From Candidatus Woesearchaeota archaeon (GTDB lineage: Archaea; Nanobdellota; Nanobdellia; Pacearchaeales; GW2011-AR1): a stretch of 16,390 bases of DNA. The stretch is taken from the NCBI GenBank assembly GCA_964518155.1, contig CAZFDH010000016.1, positions 1 through 16,390 on the forward strand, given 5' to 3'. Shown one piece after another: positions 5,334 to 16,390 of the stretch (positions within the stretch are counted from its first letter, which is position 1; each line of letters begins with the position of its first letter). The position numbers and the translations under genes are program-made. The notes below the pieces were generated by a model. The model saw nothing but the letters and a program-made list of their open reading frames with translations, was not told where the DNA came from and made no database searches.

Positions 5334-5515
5334 TCCCAGATGAAATGATTTATTGCGGCTTCTATTGATCTTAATCTCGCTCTACGATGTTCATCAAGAG
5401 CGGGGCGAGCTTTATCTAATAAATCTTCATAAAATCTGTGATACTGTTCGGTCGTCATAAAAACTTGAGGTTCAACACCATTTGATAGACGAATTTTATA
5501 CTCGGGTGGACTCAT
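5330..5515 (-). CDS. Small hypothetical protein (61 aa), paralog B of a tandem pair
   Basis: ATG-initiated ORF. It shares a C-terminal block with the neighbouring ORF (RPALDEHRRARLRSIEAA..HF versus RPELDRLREAALRSEEAS..HF). No Cys or His clusters and no family I recognise. Its stop overlaps the DP2 stop in the sequence TTTAA (convergent). Confidence 0.55.
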   Translation of the reverse strand: MSPPEYKIRLSNGVEPQVFMTTEQYHRFYEDLLDKARPALDEHRRARLRSIEAAINHFIWD

Positions 5516-5555
5516 AATTTCTTAAATAAAGAATGATTTAAATTAGTTTTGGTTT

Positions 5556-5741
5556 TTAATATACAAAATGATAGTGTGATGCTTCTTCTGATCTTAATGC
5601 AGCTTCTCTTAATCTATCTAGTTCTGGACGAATCCTTTCTGAGAATTCTCTTTGAAACTCTCTTGTTTCTTCCGGAGTAAATACTTTATATGGCTGAGGA
5701 CTCCCTTCAGGAAGAATTTTGAGTCCTTTTTTATATTTCAT
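5556..5741 (-). CDS. Small hypothetical protein (61 aa), paralog A of a tandem pair
   Basis: Same length and strand as 5330..5515, separated by a 40-bp AT-rich spacer. The helix-rich C-terminal block (F..EF.E.IRPELDRLREAALRSEEA) is conserved between the two. That conservation argues both are real genes. Confidence 0.55.
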   Translation of the reverse strand: MKYKKGLKILPEGSPQPYKVFTPEETREFQREFSERIRPELDRLREAALRSEEASHYHFVY

Positions 5742-5828
5742 GATTGAAATAATTTTTATAGCTATTTAATTATTTGTGTTTTTTGGAGTAAACATAAATC
5801 TTAAAAGGGTTGTGTTTTTAGGCCTGAA

Positions 5829-6860
5829 ATGGGACGAGAGATTATTATTTATGGGCGAGTGCAGGGAGTTGGATTTAGAAACAGGATTAAGGAATTTTGT
5901 TTGGAGAATCACTTGAAAGGTTTTGTGAGAAATTTATCTGATGGGAGTGTTTATGTTTATTTGGACGCTAAAGAAAAAGAAGTTGAATTATTCTTGAACT
6001 GGATTAAAGAAATAAAAGGGTTTGTTAAAATAAACAATTTTGAACTGAGAGAAAAAAATTTTAAGTCAGAAGGATTTATTGTAAAAAAAGACAAAGGATT
6101 TTTGCGGGATAAACTTGAAAGCGAGATTAATTTATTAAGGTATTTTTTTGGCCTATCTTTTCCGCGAAATTATTTAAGAAAAATTCCTCAACATGTTGTA
6201 ATAATTCCTGATGGAAACCGTAGATGGGCTAAGAGAAGAGGGATGAATGAAAGTGAAGGGCACAAAAAATCTGCACAGTTTGGAAATGTAAAATCTTTAC
6301 TAAAAGAATGTAGTGACTTGGGTGTAAAAAGCTTTTCAATTTGGGGTTTTTCGACGGAAAACTGGAAAAGAAGTGAAGAAGAAAAGAAAATTCTTTTTGA
6401 TTTGATTTATTCTACTTTAGAAAAATTCCATAAAGAAATTAGTAAAAATAAAATCCGGTTCAGACATTTTGGCAGGAAAGATAGACTTCCGTCTAAGCTA
6501 GTTGAACTAATAAAGAAACTTGAAAAAGAAAGTGCAAAAAATAATGAGTTTAATTTTAATCTTCTTTTAGATTATGGGGGAAGAGATGAAATAATTAGGT
6601 CGATCGAAAAACTTTTGAATGCCAAAAAGAAAAAAATTAGTGAAGAAGAATTTTCTAAATATTTGGATAGTTATGGGGTTGAAGACCCTGATTTAATCAT
6701 AAGAACTTCTGGAGAAAAAAGAATCTCGGGGCTCATGCCTTGGCAAACAGTTTATTCTGAACTTTACTTCTGTGATAAATTTTTCCCTTCATTTAACAAA
6801 AATGATTTAAGAAAAGCAGTTTTTGAATACGACGGACGAGAAAGAAGACTTGGAAAATAA
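5829..6860 (+). CDS. uppS: Fusion protein: N-terminal acylphosphatase domain plus C-terminal cis-prenyltransferase (undecaprenyl/di-trans,poly-cis-polyprenyl diphosphate synthase, UppS family)
   Basis: Residues 1 to about 90, IIIYGRVQGVGFRNRIKEFCLENHLKGFVRNLSDGSVYVYLDA..., match the acylphosphatase signatures (V.G.VQGVGFR and G.V.N..DGSV). Residues from about 120 carry the UppS motifs HVVIIPDGNRRWAKRRG, FSTENWKRS and IIRTSGEKRISGLMPWQTVYSELYF. It is one uninterrupted 343-codon frame. Confidence 0.85.
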   Translation: MGREIIIYGRVQGVGFRNRIKEFCLENHLKGFVRNLSDGSVYVYLDAKEKEVELFLNWIKEIKGFVKINNFELREKNFKSEGFIVKKDKGFLRDKLESEINLLRYFFGLSFPRNYLRKIPQHVVIIPDGNRRWAKRRGMNESEGHKKSAQFGNVKSLLKECSDLGVKSFSIWGFSTENWKRSEEEKKILFDLIYSTLEKFHKEISKNKIRFRHFGRKDRLPSKLVELIKKLEKESAKNNEFNFNLLLDYGGRDEIIRSIEKLLNAKKKKISEEEFSKYLDSYGVEDPDLIIRTSGEKRISGLMPWQTVYSELYFCDKFFPSFNKNDLRKAVFEYDGRERRLGK

Positions 6861-8048
6861 TTATAGTGTGAGATAAAAAATAATCGTAGGTAATAGAAGA
6901 CATCCCATCATATTTGTTCTTTTTACTTTTGAAGTTATAGAGTAAATCCCGGTAAAGGTTGAGATTATGAGGACTAAGATCCCGATAATTCCTGAAACTA
7001 ATAGAGTAATTAAGAATATCACAAATAATGTTGTAAATGAAATCTTTGTATAATTAATTTTACTAATGTTTATTGAAAAAAATTTTGCCAGAATTGAAGT
7101 TAGAAAAAAAGAGATTACCCCGGTTATTAAAACCGCAGTTAAAATTAAAATCAAAGTCGGGAAGTTTAATTCTCCTACTAATTCCTGGATTGCAACTGCT
7201 GCACCTGTTCGCGTTTTCGAAATAAGGAAAAGTGAAAGGAAGGAAAAACCCATCACAATTGTGTTAGTTATTCCGAGCAAAACTAAAAATTCTTCTTTGT
7301 CGTTTTTTACGAGCGTGTTTCCTATAACTGCTGCTTGACCTGAACCAAGGCCAGGAAGAAAACCACACAAAGGAGAAGCAATTAAAGAACTGATTATAGG
7401 TTTCTTCAGTTTGAGTGAAGGAGGGGTGATTATTTGAGGAGGAATTTTAGTTTTTTCTTTTATACTTAGGATTATTCCGGAAGCTCCGAACAAACCAGTA
7501 AGCAAAGGCAAAAGCGGCTCGTTTATTTGAATGTTTAGAACGATCAAACCAAGAACTCCGGTCAATGAAAATACTATTAAAGCTTGAAATTTGTTTTGCT
7601 CGGTGAGGATTAAGATTAGAGAAGTTGCAATCAAAATATATCCAATGAAAGGAGTTATATTCTGATAAATTTTTGGAAAGAAAACTATAGAGACGGGTGA
7701 CAAAACGACTAAAAGAAAAATTGAAATTAAACTTCCGTAATTGGTAAACATTATTGCTTCATATGCGCGACCTTCTTTTAGAAGAGAATGGCCTGGAAGG
7801 GTTGAAAGTTCGGTGTCTGTGTCAGGCGCACCCAGAAGAATTGAAGGAATAAAGTCGATGAAAGTATGAGTTATTGCCATCGATGAAATTAAGACGACGA
7901 GATAAATTGGATTTAGTTTTGAGAGAAATGCTACGGATGAAGAAACTAAAAAAACTCCTACAAGGTTTGTATGTATTCCCGGAGTTAGGCCTGTAAAGAC
8001 CCCGGCGGTCACACCGCAGACCAAAGCGATGAAAAGCTCAAATATCAT
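6861..8048 (-). CDS. Polytopic membrane protein, probably TctA/DUF112-family (COG1784-like) transporter subunit
   Basis: 395 aa and almost entirely hydrophobic, with roughly 10 or more predicted TM segments. It has two G(L/F)xPG motifs (FTGLTPGIHTN and CGFLPGLGSGQAAV) reminiscent of TctA-family repeats. The family assignment comes from memory of the motif, not from a search. Confidence 0.6.
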   Translation of the reverse strand: MIFELFIALVCGVTAGVFTGLTPGIHTNLVGVFLVSSSVAFLSKLNPIYLVVLISSMAITHTFIDFIPSILLGAPDTDTELSTLPGHSLLKEGRAYEAIMFTNYGSLISIFLLVVLSPVSIVFFPKIYQNITPFIGYILIATSLILILTEQNKFQALIVFSLTGVLGLIVLNIQINEPLLPLLTGLFGASGIILSIKEKTKIPPQIITPPSLKLKKPIISSLIASPLCGFLPGLGSGQAAVIGNTLVKNDKEEFLVLLGITNTIVMGFSFLSLFLISKTRTGAAVAIQELVGELNFPTLILILTAVLITGVISFFLTSILAKFFSINISKINYTKISFTTLFVIFLITLLVSGIIGILVLIISTFTGIYSITSKVKRTNMMGCLLLPTIIFYLTL

Positions 8049-8210
8049 CGCTATACGCCTTATTCTCCCCTTTCTAAGTTATTGAAATGATTTAAACCTT
8101 TTTGTGAGTGTGGTTTAATATACTCTTTTTCCATTTTGCTTATCTCTCTTTGTTTTTCCGTCGCTGTTGTTTACTATTCTGGAAAGTTTTTTTGTGTAAT
8201 TTTATTGGGT

Positions 8211-8654
8211 TTAGGATTCATTGGACGTCTTGACTTGTTTTTTATCTATTTTGATGACTGGAAATTTGAGGCTCCCCCAAGAGATTGTAATTTCTTGTGG
8301 TTCTTGTGAAGAAGTTATCATGACTGGTCGTCCCTTTACCCTTTCTTTTTTTTCTAGTTTGATTAATCCCGCTTCTTCTAATACTTTCAGATGAAACAAA
8401 AAAGATTTGTAATCTAATTGATTTTTTTTAGAGCGCTTCTTATTTATATCTTCTTGAAGTTTCGAGATATTAATTTCCTTTTCTTCATTCTTCACTATGT
8501 AGCATAATATATCTAATCTCAAATCATTTGCTAAAAGTTTTAACAATATACGTCCCTCTTCCTCTGTCGATTCACCCGCAATTCCTATTGATACCTTCCT
8601 CTGAATACTAAATTTAATCTTTTTCAATCGTTCTCTCCAATTTTCTCTCGGCAT
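8211..8654 (-). CDS. Winged-helix (ArsR/PadR-like) DNA-binding protein
   Basis: 147 aa. The core LRLDILCYIVKNEEKEINISKLQEDI...FLFHLKVLEEAGLIKLEKKERVKGRP has the helix-turn-helix plus wing layout of ArsR-type regulators. It is transcribed divergently from the RHH operon. Confidence 0.6.
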   Translation of the reverse strand: MPRENWRERLKKIKFSIQRKVSIGIAGESTEEEGRILLKLLANDLRLDILCYIVKNEEKEINISKLQEDINKKRSKKNQLDYKSFLFHLKVLEEAGLIKLEKKERVKGRPVMITSSQEPQEITISWGSLKFPVIKIDKKQVKTSNES

Positions 8655-8668
8655 TATAAGAAATAAAG

Positions 8669-8728
8669 TCCCTTAATAGTTATAAATCTATCGAAATATT
8701 CTTTATGGGAATTGACTTCCCTTAATAG
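8669..8728. promoter_or_regulatory. Two direct copies of TCCCTTAATAG (8669-8679 and 8718-8728) in the divergent ArsR-like / RHH promoter region
   Basis: Exact 11-bp direct repeat, 49 bp start to start, inside the 134-bp intergenic region 8655-8788, which also has several TATA-like tracts (TATAAAT, TTTATATATA). This is a candidate operator or recombinase half-site. A third copy, GTCCCTTAAT, lies at 11157-11166. Confidence 0.35.
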
Positions 8729-8788
8729 AAAGATTTATATATACTAATTACTCTAAATATATTATAGGAGTTTAATTCATATAATAAA

Positions 8789-8920
8789 ATGGAAGTGATG
8801 ATATTCAAAATCCCTAAGGAAATGAAAGAACAGTTAGACAAATTAGCGACGAAAGAAGAGAGAACTAAAGCTTATTTTATCAGAAAAGCCATAGAGAAAT
8901 TTTTGGAGGGCAGAAAATGA
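8789..8920 (+). CDS. Ribbon-helix-helix (CopG/Arc-like) protein, 43 aa; not in the supplied ORF track
   Basis: My own translation is MEVMIFKIPKEMKEQLDKLATKEERTKAYFIRKAIEKFLEGRK*. It has the beta-strand / helix / helix RHH pattern (IFKIPKE - MKEQLDKLA - RTKAYFIRKAIEKFL). Stop TGA 8918-8920 overlaps ATG 8917 of the next gene (ATGA coupling). Confidence 0.6.
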   Translation: MEVMIFKIPKEMKEQLDKLATKEERTKAYFIRKAIEKFLEGRK

Positions 8921-9147
8921 GTAACCAAACTTTCTTAATCTGGAATGAAAAAAGTAATTCTCTTATTCAGCTTAAATGTCCTGAATCTATAAAACGGCGG
9001 ATAAAAGCGTTGGCTAAATCAGAAGGGAAGACCGTGACTTCTTATATGCTTGAAAAATCTTTGAACGAGTTGTCTCAAGAAATGAAGCTAAATAAAATAA
9101 TAGAATTGTTGGAGAAGGAGAAAAATGAAAATAATAAAGGACGCTGA
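8917..9147 (+). CDS. Second ribbon-helix-helix protein (76 aa)
   Basis: LIQLKCPESIKRRIKALAKSEGKTVTSYMLEKSLNEL fits the RHH pattern, with a charged, helical C-terminal tail. It overlaps both the upstream RHH gene (4 nt) and the downstream AAA+ gene (23 nt). Confidence 0.6.
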   Translation: MSNQTFLIWNEKSNSLIQLKCPESIKRRIKALAKSEGKTVTSYMLEKSLNELSQEMKLNKIIELLEKEKNENNKGR

Positions 9148-10222
9148 AAAACTTAGAAGCAATTATATTCCAGATAAATTATTATTTCGGGAAGATTTGA
9201 TTAGAGACATCAATCTGAAAATAAAAATCGGAACTGGAAATATGTTCTTGCAGGGAGATACTGGAACCGGTAAGACAGCTAGCGTAATGAAAGCAATAGA
9301 AAAAATTGATAACGTTCTCATTGTTTTCATAAATTGTTCTAGGTATGATACGTATACTTCTGTTGGAATGAAGATAATAGAATCTATTAAAACAACTTCT
9401 ATAAGGCCAACTGGAAGAATACGAGCAGGAATTTCTGAGGAATTGGCAAAAGTGTTAACCACAAAAAGAAAAAAGAAAATAGTTTTTATCTTTGATGAAG
9501 TGGATAAATTAATCAATAAAGAAAGAGACCATCAACAAATTTTTAATCCAATTGTAGAATCTACAAATAGTAACATTATTTTAATTTCTAATGAACCCAC
9601 CGCATTAAATAAATTAGATGCAAGACTTATAAGCAGATTATCTCCTGAAAAAAGATTTGTTCCAAAATATTTCTTTGATGAAATGTTTGAGATACTCAAA
9701 CATCGGGCGAAAATCGGTTTAGTTTCAAAGAATTATGATGTTGAAGCAATAGCAAAAATATCCAGATGGATTTTTAAAACAACTGGTGATATAAGGGAGG
9801 CATTAAATCTCTTATACGAAATTTCTTGTTTAGCTGAAAAAAATAAATGTAGGTTAACTGTCGAACTCTTTGAGGAGGCGAAAAATAGGGTAGAAGATAT
9901 GGAATTTGATGAGGCTTTTGCTTATCTTCCAACTCAACAACAATTAATAATGGCCTCAATAGCAAAAATTGCGATAAAAGAAATTGAAAATTATGCAGAC
10001 AGTACAGAAGTCTATAACTTTTACTCACAATGTGCTAGAGATAATAGCGAGCCGGTTTTACTTCAAAGGCAATTTGAAAGATTACTTCAAAAACTGATTT
10101 TCAGAAAGTTAATCGAGACTGGGACTAAAAGCCCAAAAGGCAGGAGGGGAAAAATGTTCGTTTATTATCCAAAATTTGATACTAGGAGGTTTATGGAAAA
10201 ATATTGGCCAAAGTATAGCTAA
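9125..10222 (+). CDS. Divergent Orc1/Cdc6-like AAA+ ATPase with C-terminal winged helix (probable element-encoded replication initiator)
   Basis: 365 aa. N-terminal YIPDKLLFREDLIRDI matches the Orc1 P..L.gRE.E pattern. Other motifs are Walker A GDTGTGKTA, Walker B VFIFDEVDKL, sensor-1 IILISNEP and SRL. The C-terminal wing KSPKGRRGKMFVYY parallels SKGRGGRMREIKL of the chromosomal Orc1 at nt 1-299. GGAG lies upstream of the ATG. Confidence 0.8.
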   Translation: MKIIKDAEKLRSNYIPDKLLFREDLIRDINLKIKIGTGNMFLQGDTGTGKTASVMKAIEKIDNVLIVFINCSRYDTYTSVGMKIIESIKTTSIRPTGRIRAGISEELAKVLTTKRKKKIVFIFDEVDKLINKERDHQQIFNPIVESTNSNIILISNEPTALNKLDARLISRLSPEKRFVPKYFFDEMFEILKHRAKIGLVSKNYDVEAIAKISRWIFKTTGDIREALNLLYEISCLAEKNKCRLTVELFEEAKNRVEDMEFDEAFAYLPTQQQLIMASIAKIAIKEIENYADSTEVYNFYSQCARDNSEPVLLQRQFERLLQKLIFRKLIETGTKSPKGRRGKMFVYYPKFDTRRFMEKYWPKYS

Positions 10223-10271
10223 TAACCGTCAACACAAGTCATTGTAGTTATTGTGTGTGATGTCGGTTATT
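10221..10271. repeat. Nested imperfect inverted repeat (outer arms AATAACCG / CGGTTATT, inner arms ACACAA / TTGTGT)
   Basis: The sequence is AATAACCGTCAACACAA-gtcattgtagtta-TTGTGTGTGATGTCGGTTATT. It starts at the last base of the Orc1-like stop codon and lies about 30 bp upstream of the recombinase operon. Function unknown (terminator hairpin, res/crossover site or initiator-binding site). Confidence 0.55.
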
Positions 10272-10300
10272 AGTATTAATTGAAAGGAGGTAAAAAGAAG

Positions 10301-10480
10301 ATGAGCAATAATAAATTGGAAGCAGGCGAGAAATATCTGTCTATAAAGATAGTCGGACACGAATACATTAATGTGTTCAAGAACAAAAATAAAAAATCAG
10401 ATAAAGAGCCAGACTATTCAAGCAATGGGGTCGGTGTTTGGGTTAGGACAAAAAAATCAAAGGAGGAAGAAGATATTTAG
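10301..10480 (+). CDS. Small hypothetical protein (59 aa), translationally coupled to the serine recombinase
   Basis: ATG 10301 is preceded by AAGGAGG (10284-10290) at canonical spacing, so I prefer it to the TTG at 10280. Stop TAG 10478-10480 abuts ATG 10481. Lys-rich. The segment KSDKEPDYSSNGVGVWVRTKK is noted under findings. Confidence 0.5.
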   Translation: MSNNKLEAGEKYLSIKIVGHEYINVFKNKNKKSDKEPDYSSNGVGVWVRTKKSKEEEDI

Positions 10481-11143
10481 ATGAAAGAGACTGTAATTTA
10501 TCTTAGAACTTCGACAGAAGAACAAAATCCAGAGAATCAATTAAAGGATTGTGAAGAGTTGGCCGGAAGACTTGGATTGAAAGAATACGATGTATTTCCT
10601 GAGAAGAAGTCTGCCTTCAAAGATAATGTAGAGAGGGCAGTTTTTAACTCGATTAGGTTGGCTATTCAAGAAAAGAAAATAAAGAATTTGATTGTATGGG
10701 ATTTAGACAGGCTTTATAGAAATAGATTAAAGACTGTTGATTTTATAAGAAACTCTTCTAAACTTGGTTTAAACATATATTCTTTTAGACAATCTTGGTT
10801 TGAAGATATAAAGAGAATACCCGAACCCTTTAATGAAATAATGAACGATTTAATGTTGCAGGTTATTTCTTGGATTGCGGAAGAAGAAAGTAAAAAGAAA
10901 AGTGAGAGAGTTAAATCTGCCGTTCGTAGAGAAGATGGAAATACTTTTTCATATAAGGGAAATAAATGGGGCAGAAAAAACATCGTAAACAAAGATGTTC
11001 TTAGGGATGTTTTATTTTTTTATGATAGCGGTATGTCTATAAGAGAAATATCTAAAGAAGTTTTTTATTATGATAAGAATAGAAATAAGAAGAATATCTC
11101 AAAGAGTGTTGTTCATAAAATTATTTTAGAACACAGAAGATAA
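10481..11143 (+). CDS. Small serine recombinase (resolvase/invertase family) with C-terminal HTH
   Basis: 220 aa. VIYLRTSTEEQ carries the catalytic Ser in the Y.R.S...Q motif. LIVWDLDRLYRN is the DRL.R motif and AEEESKKKSERVK the E-helix SER motif. The C-terminal GMSIREISKEV...KSVVHKII is the HTH. AGGAGG lies 15 nt upstream. Confidence 0.9.
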   Translation: MKETVIYLRTSTEEQNPENQLKDCEELAGRLGLKEYDVFPEKKSAFKDNVERAVFNSIRLAIQEKKIKNLIVWDLDRLYRNRLKTVDFIRNSSKLGLNIYSFRQSWFEDIKRIPEPFNEIMNDLMLQVISWIAEEESKKKSERVKSAVRREDGNTFSYKGNKWGRKNIVNKDVLRDVLFFYDSGMSIREISKEVFYYDKNRNKKNISKSVVHKIILEHRR

Positions 11144-11161
11144 TTTACTTTAGAGTGTCCC

Positions 11162-11177
11162 TTAATTGGTCAATTAA
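11162..11177. repeat. 7-2-7 palindrome TTAATTG-GT-CAATTAA, 19 bp after the recombinase stop
   Basis: Perfect 7-bp inverted arms surround an asymmetric GT dinucleotide. The palindrome overlaps the third GTCCCTTAAT copy (11157-11166). This geometry resembles a serine-recombinase crossover site, but the element is AT-rich and short, so it could be chance or a terminator. Confidence 0.35.
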
Positions 11178-11372
11178 AAAATAGCTATTAAACGAGTTAT
11201 TTACTGGGAAAAAATCGAAAAGGGATTTATGGACACTTACGGACAGTTTGACTATAAAAGGACGGTGTCATAGGTGCTTGTGCTGTAATGCTTCCAGAAG
11301 CAGTAACTACACTGCTACTTGGGGTTTCCTGTGTAAAAACTTCAACCACATAATCTTATACCTCAATTAATT

Positions 11373-11585
11373 TTATCTGTTTAAAGTGAAAAGTCTTTCT
11401 GGCTTATATGTTTGTTTTCCCAACCTTTCTTTAACCATCCCTTCTTTCTTCATAAACTCCAAAGCCTTAATTGTTGTTTCCCACTGGGAGCCTATTTTCT
11501 CTGAAATAGCCTTAACAGACAGTTCCTCGTTTCTCAAAACCTTCTTTATAGCAGTTATAACTTCAAGTATGTTCCTTCTTGACAT
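11373..11585 (-). CDS. Small winged-helix DNA-binding protein (70 aa), probable autoregulator
   Basis: MSRRNILEVITAIKKVLRNEELSVKAISEKIGSQWETTIKALEFMKKEGMVKERLGK... is a typical minimal wHTH, with recognition helix SQWETTIKALEFM and a wing after it. The start codon abuts an operator-like site. I prefer it to the overlapping + strand ORF 11386..11628, which is low-complexity and hydrophobic. Confidence 0.65.
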   Translation of the reverse strand: MSRRNILEVITAIKKVLRNEELSVKAISEKIGSQWETTIKALEFMKKEGMVKERLGKQTYKPERLFTLNR

Positions 11586-11639
11586 CTGTATAAAAGCACA
11601 GATATTCTTAAATATCGCAACTGTGTAATTACACAGATA
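11586..11639. promoter_or_regulatory. Bidirectional promoter: two CTGT-N8-ACAGATA sites flanking one TATA-like element
   Basis: Site 1 is CTGTATAAAAGCACAGATA (11586-11604). Site 2 is CTGTGTAATTACACAGATA (11621-11639), whose first 16 bp are a perfect palindrome. The TTCTTAAATATC tract between them lies about 25-35 bp from both divergent start codons (11585 on the minus strand, 11645 on the plus strand). That spacing is consistent with leaderless or short-leader archaeal transcripts. Confidence 0.5.
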
Positions 11640-11644
11640 GCAAA

Positions 11645-11875
11645 ATGGGAATAATTAAAAAACTCTGGAAGGCAATGGATGACACTCCGGAAGAGAAAGC
11701 TCTAATAAAAAGTCAGATTCTTGCAACTCAAATAGCTAATCAACAAAGAGAAATGATGACCTGTAAGAATTGTAAGAAGATATTTAGTGAAGGGTACCCT
11801 TATCAAAGGTATTTATTTGGGAAGGTTAAGAATTATGTTTGTAAGGACTGTGCTAAAAAATTAAAGTTGATTTAG
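11645..11875 (+). CDS. Small zinc-ribbon protein (76 aa), function unknown
   Basis: It has a CxxC...CxxC pair (CKNCKKIF...VCKDCAKKL) after a helical N-terminus. It is transcribed divergently from the wHTH gene and lies upstream of the 352-aa membrane protein. Confidence 0.55.
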   Translation: MGIIKKLWKAMDDTPEEKALIKSQILATQIANQQREMMTCKNCKKIFSEGYPYQRYLFGKVKNYVCKDCAKKLKLI

Positions 11876-11933
11876 GTTCAATAATTTAAATTTCTCTGGA
11901 AAAGTCTATTAAGTTAAAAATATCCAAAGAGTT

Positions 11934-12992
11934 ATGAGAAAAATAGACTTTGGAAAGATAAGCGATTACTTTCTAATCAGCTTGGTTTCGATTGTTTCTA
12001 TTGCTCTAATAATTTTGGAATATTTCCAAGTTCATCGACTTATCTCTCTGGCAGTTGCCATTTTATCTCTTTTAATAATTTTAATTAAGGAAATAAGAGA
12101 GAAAAACAAAGACAGCATAGAAGAAGCAGAAAGAAAACTTACAGATGAGAGAATTATAATAATAGAAAGAGAAGTCACAAAGAAAAATGTTGAGTTGGAA
12201 GACAGGCAAAAAATAATATCTGAATTTTTAAGTGAAGGAATTATTAGAGAAGAGGATTTAATTAAAAGTCTTAATCAAGAACCATTTGTTATATTGTATC
12301 ATTATAATCGTGGAATAAAGCAAGAACTACTCCAGTATTTTCCAGATAAGAAAAAACCAATAAATAAAATCTTAAATGATTTGGGATTTGTTCCTGTGGG
12401 ATTTGCTCACGGTTCTTATTTTTTCCATGTTATTGGTGCTAAGTTTCTTCCTAGACCTTTAGATGATGTTACATATTTAGAGGCATATATAAAAAAGAAA
12501 ATGAGAAATTCATTTAAGAATATCTTATTGAACTTACAAAAAAATAATCCAGAACTTTATAATAAAACCAAAGATAAAAAATTGTTTAATCTAAGTTATT
12601 TTATTGGAAAGATTTTTCCTGCACATTTGAGTGTGGGATATGTTAATTTTTCTTCATTTGATAGAGAGTTTACTTCATATTATTCTAAGTTTAGCAATCT
12701 TAATAAAATGCAAATAAATGAACAAAAGTTAAACGAGATTTTAAAATTGGCCTCATTGAAGATTTTTATTAAACAAATTCCTCCAAAAGATAGAGAAAAA
12801 ATAATCTCGAAAGAAGACGCAATAAAACAAGAATTTTCTATAAATAATTTATTAGACTATCAAACCCTCTCTTTAGAATCTTGGACTAGAGCTTTATCTA
12901 AAATACTCAAAAATGATAAGGCCTCTGTTTATGCCAAAGTAATAAGAAATTCAACACAAAGATATTGTCCAATAATTAGAGAATTTATTTGA
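11934..12992 (+). CDS. Uncharacterised membrane-anchored protein (352 aa): 2 N-terminal TM helices, a charged coiled segment and an unknown C-terminal domain
   Basis: The TM helices are YFLISLVSIVSIALIILEYF and LISLAVAILSLLIILI. Next comes KEIREKNKDSIEEAERKLTDERIIIIEREVTKKNVELEDRQK, then about 250 aa with no motif I recognise. The long ATG-initiated ORF has no competing frame. Its 3' end overlaps the res 3' end by 8 nt (convergent). Confidence 0.65.
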   Translation: MRKIDFGKISDYFLISLVSIVSIALIILEYFQVHRLISLAVAILSLLIILIKEIREKNKDSIEEAERKLTDERIIIIEREVTKKNVELEDRQKIISEFLSEGIIREEDLIKSLNQEPFVILYHYNRGIKQELLQYFPDKKKPINKILNDLGFVPVGFAHGSYFFHVIGAKFLPRPLDDVTYLEAYIKKKMRNSFKNILLNLQKNNPELYNKTKDKKLFNLSYFIGKIFPAHLSVGYVNFSSFDREFTSYYSKFSNLNKMQINEQKLNEILKLASLKIFIKQIPPKDREKIISKEDAIKQEFSINNLLDYQTLSLESWTRALSKILKNDKASVYAKVIRNSTQRYCPIIREFI

Positions 12993-15174
12993 AAGACAAG
13001 AACTTCCAACTTTCGCCTAATTTGTTCTCATTGAAAGAATAATCCTTTCCTTCGTGGTATCTACAACTGCCTTCCTTGAAAACAACAATTCCACCCCATA
13101 ACTTCTTTTTGTATTTCTTGCTATGTTCTTCAATGTGTTTGGCTAAGGCCTCCGCTTTCTCTTTTGCGTCTTCTGCTGTTCTTCCAGACTTAGTATCGAA
13201 TAGCCCTATACTTCCATCTTCCATTACTACAATAAAGTCTACATAGAAGGCTCTTTCAACTCCGTATTTGTCCGCATATTTGACTGCAAAGTATTTCTTT
13301 TCGGACTCTCCATTCTTGAACCACCATAAAACTTTATTCTTGCTTTCTAACAATTCAACAAAATCTTTTTCTGGCTGACTTCCTGACTTTTCAAAGTTAG
13401 GCTTCATAATAGATTTTTTGTAATCTACTGGCTTGTATCTTGAATTGAAACTTATAGATTCTGGAACATTCCAAACAGTATGTTCTGTTTCTCTTTTTTC
13501 AGAAAGTTCTTTTACAACTTTAAGACTATAATCTTCTTTTGCTTTGTTTACATAGTCTGTAATTAATTGGTTATTCTCCTCTCCCAAAATTATCTCTTGT
13601 ATCTTTGTGTAGTCTGAGATTTTAAGAGTCTCCTCAAAGAATTTATACAATGCAGTTTTTATTCTACCACTAGAGTCTGCTGGAGCGAATGGAGAACAAA
13701 CAGAACGAATATACAAATCAAACCGATATTGAAGTTCTTTTTCAGTAATCTTAATTTTTATTTCTCCGCCATGTTTTACAACTTGCACTTCATCTAATTT
13801 TTCTACTCTTCCATCCACCATTATAGCATTTACTAATTTTGTTGGTTGTAAATTAATCTTAGTGTGTATCCTGTCTTTCTTTGCTATGTCTAAAAATATC
13901 TTTGAAAATTTACCAGAGAGTCTAGTCTTTTCTCTTTGTCTCTTAAGATAAACTGATTGTAAATCTATGTTTTTGTATTCTTTTTTTCTTCTGGCCTCAT
14001 AAACGGTAATATAATCTTTCGCAATATCTTCGGCAATTTCAACATCTGAAAGATTTGTGAAAACATAGCCTTTGTTTAATTCTTCTGTGTCGTAATGCTT
14101 AAATTCCGGCATTCTCATAATTCTGCCGATTGTTTGGATTGAGAACACAATGCTTTTCCAATCTCTAAATAAAACTAGAATTGAACTTCTCGGACAATCC
14201 CAACCTAATGCTATGGCCTGTTTGAAGATTAAGACTTCTGTTTCATTATCTAATTTTTCTATATTCTCTAAGTTTACTTTATTGTCTTTTTCTGATAAAT
14301 AAATTGCGAGTTTACGATTCTCTATTGTTATCTTGAATTTGTCTTTTAGAGTTTTAATTATATCTTCTTTTTTATCTATCACTCCTGCTTTGGCGTCGGG
14401 CAACTGGATTAAGACTAGGGGATTAATATTAGAACCCTCTTTTTTATAGGCCTTAACTAATTCTTCTCTTTTCTTTAAAGCACATTCTATAATAAATTCA
14501 TCTGTGCTTTTACCATTAATTGTCTCTTTGTCTATCCCTAAATTTATAGCAACTTCTTTCTTTATCATTCCTTCGTCTTTAACTGCTTGAAAGTCTACTT
14601 CGACAATTCTTGATACTTCTCTAATTTGTGGAGTTGCTGAAACTTCAATAGTCACTTTAGGAGCGATGTCTCTTATTACTTCTTTTGATTTTTCCGCTTT
14701 TGCTGTGTGATGGCTTTCATCAATCACTAGAATAATTTCTCGGCCTTCATCTTTTGTATTTGAAACAACATTTGACAAGTTATTGTCTTGTTCATTTTCT
14801 CTAATGAAAATATTTCCACTTTTGTTTATACTTTGCCAATTAAAGAATAATATCTCATTCTTCCCAATCTTCTTATCTTCTAGGTCTTCAAAATCAGAAC
14901 ATTTTAGGACTCGACTATCTTCGTAATATTGTTCTAACTTATCTTTACTTTGGTCGTGCAACTGATTAACTGAAATCCAAATAAACGAAAGGTCGTTTTT
15001 GTATTTTCTTTCTGTAACTAATCTCTTTAAGGCCTCTGCAAGCATTAAAGTTTTTCCTGAACCTGTCGGAGCCTTGAAAACACAAATCTTATTTTCAGAA
15101 GATTCTAGTAACTCTATTGTTTCTGACTTTAACTTTTCTATTGCTTTGTCTTGGTAATCTTTTAATTCAATCAT
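12985..15174 (-). CDS. res: Type III restriction enzyme Res subunit (SF2 helicase-like ATPase plus C-terminal PD-(D/E)xK nuclease)
   Basis: The helicase motifs are FKAPTGSGKT (I), LVIDESHH (II), SATP (III) and QTIGRIMR (VI). The C-terminal YVDFIVVMEDGSIGLFDTKSG fits D...(D/E)xK. The likely start is MIELKDYQ at ATG 15174, which overlaps the mod stop (15167-15169) by 8 nt as ATGATTGA. The ORF-track start at 15222 is a non-ATG extension. Confidence 0.85.
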   Translation of the reverse strand: MIELKDYQDKAIEKLKSETIELLESSENKICVFKAPTGSGKTLMLAEALKRLVTERKYKNDLSFIWISVNQLHDQSKDKLEQYYEDSRVLKCSDFEDLEDKKIGKNEILFFNWQSINKSGNIFIRENEQDNNLSNVVSNTKDEGREIILVIDESHHTAKAEKSKEVIRDIAPKVTIEVSATPQIREVSRIVEVDFQAVKDEGMIKKEVAINLGIDKETINGKSTDEFIIECALKKREELVKAYKKEGSNINPLVLIQLPDAKAGVIDKKEDIIKTLKDKFKITIENRKLAIYLSEKDNKVNLENIEKLDNETEVLIFKQAIALGWDCPRSSILVLFRDWKSIVFSIQTIGRIMRMPEFKHYDTEELNKGYVFTNLSDVEIAEDIAKDYITVYEARRKKEYKNIDLQSVYLKRQREKTRLSGKFSKIFLDIAKKDRIHTKINLQPTKLVNAIMVDGRVEKLDEVQVVKHGGEIKIKITEKELQYRFDLYIRSVCSPFAPADSSGRIKTALYKFFEETLKISDYTKIQEIILGEENNQLITDYVNKAKEDYSLKVVKELSEKRETEHTVWNVPESISFNSRYKPVDYKKSIMKPNFEKSGSQPEKDFVELLESKNKVLWWFKNGESEKKYFAVKYADKYGVERAFYVDFIVVMEDGSIGLFDTKSGRTAEDAKEKAEALAKHIEEHSKKYKKKLWGGIVVFKEGSCRYHEGKDYSFNENKLGESWKFLSFK

Positions 15175-16390
15175 CTTTGAACACTCTCCTGTAAACGTGA
15201 AGTATTGCTTCTGGAATAGCACATAGTTTTGCTTTTCCTTTTAGTTCTTTAAACTCTTGTTCTGGCACACTATCGTCTAAAGAGAAAACATAAACGTTTA
15301 TTTTGTCTTTTAGTTTTTTTGCTTCTTTAACAAAGTCTTCTATATTTTCTTCATCGAAGATAATCCCTAAATAATGGTCAGTATTCTTGAATATTTTATA
15401 ACTTGTTTTTTCTACTATCGGCTCAAAAGCATTTTCCTTAATACAAATCATTTCTGTTGATTTATCAACTATCTTCTTTTTGTTTTGGTCGGTTGGTGCT
15501 GAGTCCACAAAATCAGTTTTGAAATATTTTAAGTTTCCGCTTAAACCTTCTATCTTTTCTTTTGTAGGAGTAGTGTAGCCTTTGATTACTTTCTCAACTC
15601 TGGGATAACATACTCCGGAACAAATATTTTCTTCATTATTCGTGCATAAAATAAACTTTCTATTTCCACCATAAAGTTTGTTATATTCTAATACTGCGTG
15701 GCCTGTAGTTCCAGAGCCCGCAAAGAAATCAAGAACTATGGAGTCTTCCTTTGTAGATAATTCAAGAATTTTCATAATTAGACTAATTGGTTTAGGATTG
15801 TTGAAAACTTTCTCACCAAATATCTCTTCTAATTCTTGAGTTCCATTAGTGGTTGTTCCCACATCGTCCCAAATAGATTTTGAAACAAGCCCTCTATCCT
15901 CGCATTCGCTTAAATACCTCTTTAATTGTGGTTTTGAATTACCAGTTTTCCCAAATATTATTCTTCCTTCTTTTAAAAATCTCTGAAATTCTTCTTTTGT
16001 TGTTCTCCAACATCTTCCTTTTGGAGGCATATAAATTTCTCCAGTCTTAGGGTTTTTTATTGGATAAGTTAAATTAGGTCTTATGTTTGGTGCATCGAAT
16101 GGGTCTGCAGTCCAATCTCCACGAGGGTCTTTATCTGGATTTGAAAACTTCTCTCCATTGGCCTTAAGTCTAAATTCCTTTTTTATTTTTTGTAGTTTGC
16201 TGATATTTTTAGCATATAGAAATGTGTGATTATGATTTAAAGATATTATTGCGTCATTGGATACGGATTTTCTCGAATTCCATATTACATCAATTATAAA
16301 ATTTTTCTCTCCAAAAACTTCATCACATAATATCTTTAGTTGGGCGAATTCATTGTCATCTATAGAAATAAATATGACTCCACTCTCCAC
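15167..16390 (-). CDS. mod: Type III (beta-class N6-adenine/N4-cytosine) DNA methyltransferase Mod subunit, N-terminus beyond the right edge
   Basis: ESGVIFISIDDNEFAQLKILCDEVFGEKNFI is the conserved block that follows the (off-window) DPPY motif in Type III Mod proteins. LDFFAGSGTTGHAV is the AdoMet-binding motif I, placed late as in beta-class enzymes, and a variable region lies between the two. The mod-res order with overlap is typical of Type III operons. Confidence 0.88.
   Translation of the reverse strand: MESGVIFISIDDNEFAQLKILCDEVFGEKNFIIDVIWNSRKSVSNDAIISLNHNHTFLYAKNISKLQKIKKEFRLKANGEKFSNPDKDPRGDWTADPFDAPNIRPNLTYPIKNPKTGEIYMPPKGRCWRTTKEEFQRFLKEGRIIFGKTGNSKPQLKRYLSECEDRGLVSKSIWDDVGTTTNGTQELEEIFGEKVFNNPKPISLIMKILELSTKEDSIVLDFFAGSGTTGHAVLEYNKLYGGNRKFILCTNNEENICSGVCYPRVEKVIKGYTTPTKEKIEGLSGNLKYFKTDFVDSAPTDQNKKKIVDKSTEMICIKENAFEPIVEKTSYKIFKNTDHYLGIIFDEENIEDFVKEAKKLKDKINVYVFSLDDSVPEQEFKELKGKAKLCAIPEAILHVYRRVFKDD

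Follow-up and report, generated by a model that had tools for sequence, protein, structure and literature searches.

The stretch of DNA considered here (the window) comprises positions 1-16,390 of contig C16, which runs on to 16515, in a 754-kb genome made up of 65 contigs (35% G+C). It carries a block of genes for regulation, replication and recombination that ends with a small serine recombinase gene and, just past it, a 28-bp dyad. An earlier note on this DNA had drawn attention to three copies of a short motif around these genes and had proposed that positions 8669-11177, some 2.5 kb, are an excisable, self-replicating mini-element. We describe the genes of the block, the dyad as putative target site of the recombinase, and the larger island to which both belong. 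About 100 loci with a homologous serine recombinase were gathered for comparison; the homologs bear the names of DPANN archaea (Woesearchaeota, Pacearchaeota, Nanoarchaeota).

The block begins with a gene on the minus strand (8211-8654) coding for an ArsR/HTH_20-like helix-turn-helix (HTH) regulator (Pfam HTH_20, E 6.5e-4). This gene diverges from an operon on the plus strand, the leading gene of which (8789-8920) encodes a CopG-like ribbon-helix-helix (RHH) regulator of 43 amino acids (Pfam RHH_1, E 4.9e-8; CopG-like repressor in PHROG). The second gene (8917-9147) encodes an RHH-like protein of 76 amino acids with a weak ParD/NikA-like match and with homologs in loci L039 and L100. Then comes an Orc1/Cdc6-like initiator of 365 amino acids (9125-10222), in which the AAA+ ATPase, lid and C-terminal winged-helix domains were all found (AAA_22, E 9.8e-8; Cdc6_lid, E 1.2e-6; Cdc6_C, E 8.7e-10). 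It is only 25-34% identical to the Orc1 proteins of relatives of the host. Closer homologs are few (46-59% identity, plus one partial sequence of 200 amino acids at 64%) and those found all lie on DPANN contigs of mobile-element character, alongside tyrosine integrases, other resolvases and small RHH/HTH genes. In IMG/VR, the Orc1-like protein has no relative and the recombinase only two distant ones. These similarities point to a divergent "shell" copy of the initiator gene.

An imperfect 18-nt inverted repeat (10219-10273, plus strand; folding energy -20.7 kcal/mol, z -3.8) sits between the stop codon of the Orc1-like gene and the next open reading frame (ORF). This candidate hairpin might serve for termination, attenuation or protein binding. 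The ORF that follows, directly upstream of the recombinase gene (10301-10480, plus strand), probably has its real start at the ATG at 10301, which gives a protein of 59 amino acids. It is without match in Pfam or PHROG and shares 71% identity with the ORF that precedes the recombinase gene of L039.

The last gene of the operon (10481-11143, plus strand) codes for a small serine recombinase of the resolvase/invertase type (220 amino acids; Pfam Resolvase, PF00239, E 5.7e-24, residues 5-150). The protein carries the N-terminal catalytic motifs Y-x-R-x-S-T and D-R-x-x-R, and Y7, R9, S11, D76, R77 and R80 are invariant in 32 homologs. The family is large, with more than 1000 homologs, and the best PHROG match is "DNA invertase". 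A search of the PDB with the single sequence gave no match and a profile search was needed. The closest solved relatives of the family profile are then Sin, the Tn3 and gamma-delta resolvases, and Gin, the best match being Sin (E 2.2e-8, residues 5-195 including the C-terminal domain). HTH_7 was recorded for some of the homologs and not for the window protein. The gene content of the block is hence as the earlier note had listed it.

The same plan recurs in related elements: opposite a divergent regulator gene stands an operon that runs from RHH and small ORFs through a replication protein to the serine recombinase at its end. L039 shows the plan exactly (divergent HTH, RHH, small ORF, replication protein, a single small ORF, serine recombinase). 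L035 comes close to it, but its small ORFs are more numerous and a non-coding gap precedes its recombinase gene; the recombinase, RHH protein and divergent HTH protein of L035 are 68, 55 and 31% identical to those of the window, respectively. L029, L030 and L039 likewise have a divergent HTH_5 gene, and a homolog search with the HTH_20 protein of the window returned the query itself only. The replication protein varies, being Orc1-like in the window, a PrimPol-helicase in L037, and unknown proteins of 535 amino acids in L035 and 584 amino acids in L039. No terminal overlaps were seen in L029, L030, L031 and L034 in a check for circularity, and L035 has no long terminal direct repeat.

The 28-bp site downstream of the recombinase gene

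The dyad TGTCCCTTAATT-GGTC-AATTAAAAAATA (11156-11183, plus strand) starts 12 nt past the stop codon of the recombinase gene. It is made up of 12-bp inverted arms and a 4-bp centre with the central dinucleotide GT (11169-11170). The palindrome TTAATTG-GT-CAATTAA (11162-11177) is the inner part of this dyad, its GT being the central dinucleotide, and the third motif copy, GTCCCTTAAT (11157-11166, plus strand, intergenic), is part of the left arm.

Homologous sites lie 0-25 nt past the recombinase stop codon in other DPANN metagenome loci. Their consensus, TGTTCATTAATT-AGTC-AATTAATGAACA, likewise has 12-nt inverted arms and a 4-nt centre. Among the 89 unique loci used for the count of downstream sites, about 37 have a match to the consensus of at least 18/28 within -10 to +25 nt of the stop codon, as against 1.5% of background windows. 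Two models of the site, a position weight matrix (PWM) and an Infernal model (R1), were both built without the window. The PWM was scanned over 532 kb of recombinase loci with a listing threshold of at least 14 bits; 45 of the 71 matches are located at -12 to +40 of a recombinase stop codon and about 12 further ones overlap the 3' end of the recombinase gene. In 12 loci (76 kb) held out from model building, all three R1 matches at E<=0.05 are just downstream of the recombinase gene, and there are no others. Within the window, 11156-11183 obtains 25.2 bits with the PWM, the next best match having 11.2 bits, and 20.5 bits with R1 (E 2e-5). Finally, a degenerate dyad pattern matches at 11156-11183 only, in the window as in the genome, and in 0/200 shuffles. 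The earlier note had taken motif and palindrome together for a serine-recombinase site with a 2-bp GT centre, and its view is borne out by these results, which are far beyond chance and argue that copy 3 belongs to a genuine, family-conserved target site of the serine recombinase. Strand exchange by the enzyme is predicted to occur at this 28-bp site.

The pattern search found no second full site in the genome, and PWM and pattern searches found no inverted partner site in the window or the genome. With only one full site in the chromosome, the recombinase has no intramolecular partner for it.

Beyond the dyad, after 40 bp, start two head-to-tail arm-like motifs on the minus strand, TGTCCATAAATC and TGTCCGTAAGTG (11224-11245; 13.9 and 8.5 bits with the arm PWM), so that dyad and motifs span 90 bp. 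Their region pairs with the left arm of the site (11154-11166) through a 13-nt inverted repeat (AGTGTCC / GGACACT), and they are a possible accessory site. For the 229-bp spacer that follows the recombinase gene, neither an Rfam match nor another copy in the genome was found. Nothing comparable to the extra arms was seen after the dyads of L085, L086 and L089, three loci read by eye; a Sin-like accessory site as a family-wide feature was rejected on this ground. In most of the 80-nt downstream sequences listed, a gene starts right after the dyad.

The second-best match of the site models in the window is a weak candidate, TGTCCAATAATT-AGAG-AATTTATTTGAA (12966-12993, plus strand; R1 12.5 bits, E 0.008; PWM 11.2 bits), oriented like the site at 11156. 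Its centre is GA (AGAG) instead of GT (GGTC), and it sits in the last codons of an ORF of 352 amino acids. Together, the sites at 11156 and 12966 bracket the three genes of 11373-12992, which encode a winged HTH (wHTH) protein, a zinc-ribbon protein and the 352-amino-acid membrane protein.

Other arrangements were observed in homologous loci. L090 has two strong matches to the site model (7491-7518, minus strand, and 9071-9098, plus strand) 1.6 kb apart downstream of its recombinase gene, a candidate invertible segment in a DPANN contig. In L143 (2292 and 2990) and L060 (149 and 912), directly repeated sites or 11-nt copies of the arm, about 0.7 kb apart, flank the recombinase gene. A site is found just upstream of the recombinase gene in L094, L100, L052 and L143. 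Furthermore, recombinase homologs with 40-50% identity are present on contigs binned as Bacteroidota or Chitinophagaceae (L055-L059, L061 and L063). L056 and L057 have exact 28-bp TGTCC-N18-GGACA dyads and L058 has a similar 32-bp dyad. These homologs point to cross-domain transfer or to mis-binning.

Motif copies in the divergent promoter

Copies 1 and 2 of the motif, GTCCCTTAATAG at 8668-8679 and TCCCTTAATAG at 8718-8728, are intergenic and on the plus strand like copy 3, so that the three copies and the palindrome are where the earlier note had placed them. Copies 1 and 2 fall within the 134 bp that separate the HTH gene from the RHH operon and make up the divergent promoter. The putative promoter/operator region (8654-8728, plus strand) contains two 26-nt direct repeats (8654-8679 and 8703-8728), each ending in (G)TCCCTTAATAG and each adjoining a TATA-like box. 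Copies 1 and 2 are the ends of these imperfect repeats, which are 20/26 identical and 49 nt apart. As a repeat pair, the two copies are real. The idea that the copies bracket exactly the genes of a minimal replicon does not hold: the divergent HTH gene, which travels with the module in related elements, is outside.

The site models do not recognize copies 1 and 2. As full sites (from 8667 and 8716), they have less than 8 bits each with the PWM. As arms, AGTCCCTTAATA and CTTCCCTTAATA, they have less than 7 bits with the arm PWM, and a passable left arm is all that they offer. R1 does not list them at E<=10. Neither copy has a right arm, and in the same register their centres are TT (copy 1) and AA (copy 2), as against GT. 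Hence, the pair of full, directly repeated recombinase sites that the excision proposed in the note calls for at either end of the 2.5-kb segment is not found: only 11156-11183 matches, and 8667 and 8716 are under all thresholds.

The link of the upstream copies to the 3' copy is not beyond chance and is statistically not secure. Genome-wide, TCCCTTAAT occurs 14 times for 9.5 expected and GTCCCTTAAT three times for 1.65 expected, which is near background. An intergenic 9-mer with three copies appears in 18% of dinucleotide shuffles of the 1.2 kb of intergenic DNA of the window. The 12-nt arm TGTCCCTTAATT has six matches with at most two mismatches in the window for 3.1 expected, and 23 of 200 shuffles reach six.

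Related elements give the same picture. The block around copy 1 is conserved at 33/40 positions in the promoter of L035, whereas the arm of the recombinase site is TGTTAATCAATT in L035 and TGTCCCTTAATT in the window. Thus, the promoter block is kept while the site arm has changed, and covariation between promoter motif and recombinase site is absent. Copy 2 is missing from L035, and the promoter of L039, where the gene architecture is the same, contains no TGTCC or GGACA. Related genomes with the genes and without the flanking motif therefore exist, an outcome that the earlier note itself had set against its model. We consider the upstream copies as promoter repeats and predict that they are not recombinase sites; the second reading proposed in the note, with the repeats as res or operator sites, fits the evidence.

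The island and its borders

Relatives keep the order Orc1, PolD small subunit, PolD large subunit, TctA. In two of them (G002 and G004), TctA stands beside the Tyr/Trp-tRNA synthetase gene, the two start codons being about 20 bp apart. In the present genome, the synthetase gene sits on another contig (C9), at 4420. Because the two genes are adjacent in relatives and apart here, they delimit a strain-specific insert of at least 12.8 kb (C16:8049-16515 plus C9:1-4400). Its left edge, at 8049-8210, adjoins the start codon of TctA. The empty site in relatives is the spacer between TctA and the synthetase gene, and the borders do not coincide with the motif copies. The comparison with empty sites thus gives an insertion that runs from 8049 to about C9:4400, and not one bounded by the repeats.

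From left to right, the island holds the HTH gene, the RHH-RHH-Orc1-like-ORF-recombinase operon, then from 11373 to 16390 the wHTH, zinc-ribbon and 352-amino-acid protein genes and the res and mod genes of a type III restriction-modification system, the contig break, and then the genes of C9. The latter part (C9:1-4400) encodes a protein of 309 amino acids, a YdjM-like protein, a tyrosine integrase with a SHOCT domain (C9:1704-2564; Phage_integrase, E 2.7e-24), two proteins of 78 and 158 amino acids, and a bestrophin-like protein. The HTH and wHTH genes have no homolog in four relatives.

The tyrosine integrase and the 158-amino-acid protein are 57 and 61% identical to a pair encoded in L086, an 831-kb contig, 2.3-3.7 kb downstream of the homologous serine recombinase gene. 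In L049, a tyrosine integrase, the serine recombinase, a YdjM-like gene and a zinc-ribbon homolog are found together. Since the integrase pair recurs near the serine recombinase in L086, the 28-bp site is internal to a recurrent type of element with its own tyrosine integrase. A role of the serine recombinase as the integrator, with its site as the end of the element, was accordingly rejected, the site being internal both here and in L086 and neither an inverted arm nor a second dyad being found. A tRNA gene as the insertion target was also rejected, as there is none in the window, in C9:1-6000 or in the loci of the relatives. A comparison by eye of C16:8049-8210 with C9:3276-4420 gave short similarities of the AATGATTT type only.

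In a genome of the same genus (G001), an AbiEi/AbiEii-like gene pair is present beside TctA at the place of the island (L024, contig C72 of G001, 10208-11670). With different inserts here and in G001, and only 20 bp in two relatives, this spot near the Orc1-PolD locus is a hotspot of insertion. On the other side of TctA, the window carries an acylphosphatase-UppS fusion gene (5829-6860) between PolD and TctA; tblastn found none at that position in three relatives. The sequences TGAAATGATTTA and AATGATTTAAA recur at 5341, 5532 and 8083 (window 5334-5828 and 8083-8096), and the chromosomal origin may lie in the 495 bp of non-coding DNA that follow the gene of the PolD large subunit (5334-5828). 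A palindrome, AATGATTTAAATCATT, is present on C9 (L027) at about 318-335.

Interpretation and comparison with known systems

We interpret the block as the replication, regulation and recombination module of a plasmid- or virus-like element of 12.8 kb or more that is integrated in the chromosome of a DPANN archaeon, where it separates TctA from the Tyr/Trp-tRNA synthetase gene, and give this interpretation a probability of roughly 0.6. In an episomal state, the element would be replicated with the Orc1/Cdc6-like protein as initiator. Control of the divergent promoter would fall to the HTH and RHH proteins, with the two 26-nt repeats containing (G)TCCCTTAATAG as operators. The serine recombinase would act on the single 28-bp dyad and cut at the central GT, the second copy of the site being supplied by a dimer of the replicon or by a related incoming element. 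As a recombinase with a single site needs such a second copy, its reaction is probably the resolution of multimers, or the fusion and separation of related replicons. Integration of the whole element into the chromosome would be the task of the tyrosine integrase at the other end of the island.

Several points weigh against this interpretation. The island crosses a contig break, from the end of C16 to the start of C9, and synteny alone joins the two parts. No att repeats were identified for the tyrosine integrase. No origin repeats of the ORB type were recognized beside the Orc1-like gene, where the promoter repeats and the hairpin at 10219-10273 are all that is found. The 10-nt identity of copy 1 with the site arm includes a rare C at arm position 6, present in 2-4% of sites; this shared C hints at a real link between promoter and site that the operator role leaves aside. 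Most homologous loci have a lone 28-bp dyad, and resolvases normally require accessory sites, so that resolution is only one possible reaction. Finally, the biochemical roles, the binding of operators and resolution as the reaction are all predicted here from the sequence alone.

The rare C is also the reason for keeping an alternative in which the serine recombinase itself would bind the promoter copies as half-sites and repress its own operon or loop its DNA there with no strand exchange. Tn3 resolvase represses at res, between tnpA and tnpR. Copy 1 equals the left arm of the site at 10/12 positions, including the rare CCC; the two copies, 49 nt apart, lie over both TATA boxes; and the arm consensus of the family, TGTCCnTTAATT, resembles the promoter motif. 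Moreover, L060 has TGTCCTTAATAAG upstream of its recombinase gene, and L094, L100, L052 and L143 have a site just upstream of theirs. However, copy 2 has no G at arm position 2, both copies are under the PWM and R1 thresholds, arm matches with at most two mismatches are at chance level in the window, L039 has no TGTCC or GGACA in its promoter, and in L035 the promoter block has been kept while the recombinase arm has diverged. On balance, we hold binding of the recombinase to the promoter to be unlikely. A broader conception would see in the DPANN-wide recombinases a portable unit of "gene plus 28-bp site" that ends replication operons with interchangeable initiators. The site would then be a point of exchange for modules or cassettes, and the promoter half-sites, the dyad, the extra arms and the 12966 site would be traces or regulators of such exchanges; we regard this as improbable.

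There are two further alternatives. In the first, the 28-bp site is attP-like and the recombinase is an integrase or a cassette-capturing enzyme, the candidate at 12966 marking a cassette (wHTH, zinc-ribbon and 352-amino-acid membrane protein genes) inserted at the site. The orientation and E-value (0.008) of this second-best match favor such an event, as do the lone simple dyads without accessory sites in most loci, which are like integrase-type sites, and the gene content downstream of the site, which differs between related elements. Yet hybrid sites from one exchange should have equal centres and these have GGTC and AGAG; the E-value comes from a roughly calibrated model and the match, with its poor right arm, lies in coding DNA; and no further site able to serve as attB is found in the genome. 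This alternative is therefore very improbable to our minds. The model of the earlier note, in which the recombinase deletes between the direct copies at 8668 and 11157 and releases a circle of about 2.5 kb replicating via the Orc1/Cdc6-like gene, appears scarcely credible. It is true that the copies are direct and intergenic and have 10 nt in common with a genuine recombinase site, and that direct pairs of sites or arms flank the recombinase genes of L143 and L060 and thus exist in the family. But the upstream copies lack a right arm, are not recognized by the site models and have TT or AA instead of GT at their centres; serine recombinases need matching central dinucleotides, according to Stark et al. 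(1991) as cited in PMC2602789. In addition, the left bracket cuts through the conserved HTH|RHH module and its conserved promoter, homologous modules have no such bracket, and the empty site in relatives is away from the repeats, which sets an island of at least 12.8 kb in place of 2.5 kb.

We thus return to an integrated element with an internal replication and recombination module. Its borders, formerly set 2.5 kb apart, are now at least 12.8 kb apart. To our knowledge, mobile elements of DPANN archaea are almost uncharacterized, and the integration biology of archaea is dominated by tyrosine recombinases. A testable 28-bp target site can now be assigned to a large family of serine recombinases, of more than 1000 proteins, in DPANN elements. 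This site may also serve to mark out modules in the sequences of DPANN plasmids and proviruses.

The closest parallel to the enzyme and its site is offered by Tn3 and gamma-delta. Their resolvases, too, are small serine recombinases in which a catalytic domain at the N terminus is followed by a DNA-binding part at the C terminus, the latter being putative in the window protein. The arm starts with TGTC/TGTY and so resembles the resolvase recognition motif, TGTCYNNTA. Res site I of Tn3 is 28 bp long (PMC2602789), and the window dyad has the same length and the same layout, with 12-bp inverted arms and a central dinucleotide. In contrast, the window site is after the gene and not between divergent tnpA and tnpR. 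Being 12 nt past the stop codon and not at the recombinase promoter, it does not have the autoregulatory placement of res. Nor is a DDE transposase present, and in most homologous loci sites II or III are missing. The host is an archaeon, and the similarity to the solved proteins is at the level of profiles only (E 1e-5 to 6e-4).

In the 86-bp res of Sin, the crossover site (site I) is followed by a bending-protein spacer and then by site II, which is of head-to-tail type (PMC2428073). The arrangement in the window resembles it and that of the beta-recombinase, with a dyad, then 40 bp, then two head-to-tail arm motifs, 90 bp in all. It differs in that L085, L086 and L089, read by eye, have no extra arms, and the spacing and function of those in the window are putative. 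The Hin, Gin and Cin invertases share with the window enzyme its size and domain order, as well as a simple dyad of about 26-28 bp adjoining the recombinase gene; the homologous locus L090, with its two inverted sites 1.6 kb apart, is also reminiscent of them. Unlike in these systems, there is no inverted partner site in the window or the genome, and inversion therefore cannot occur here.

The regulatory part recalls plasmid operons controlled by CopG/RHH proteins. In the copG-repB type of pMV158, a small RHH repressor gene leads the replication-initiator operon and repeats overlap the promoter. In the window, an RHH gene leads the predicted initiator operon and repeats are placed at the putative promoter, whereas the initiator is an AAA+ Orc1/Cdc6 protein and not a rolling-circle Rep. 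Finally, extra divergent Orc1/Cdc6 copies in integrated elements of archaea are a known pattern (PMC3914693, PMC6563490). The island agrees with elements carrying such "shell" Orc1/Cdc6 genes in being strain-specific, in having an integrase and a divergent extra Orc1/Cdc6, and in having an empty site in relatives. It departs from them in its DPANN host, in the presence of a tyrosine integrase besides the serine recombinase and its site, and in its insertion into a 20-bp intergenic spacer instead of a tRNA gene. The feature belongs to known kinds, namely integrated elements of archaea that carry a shell Orc1/Cdc6, and small serine recombinases with a target like res site I.

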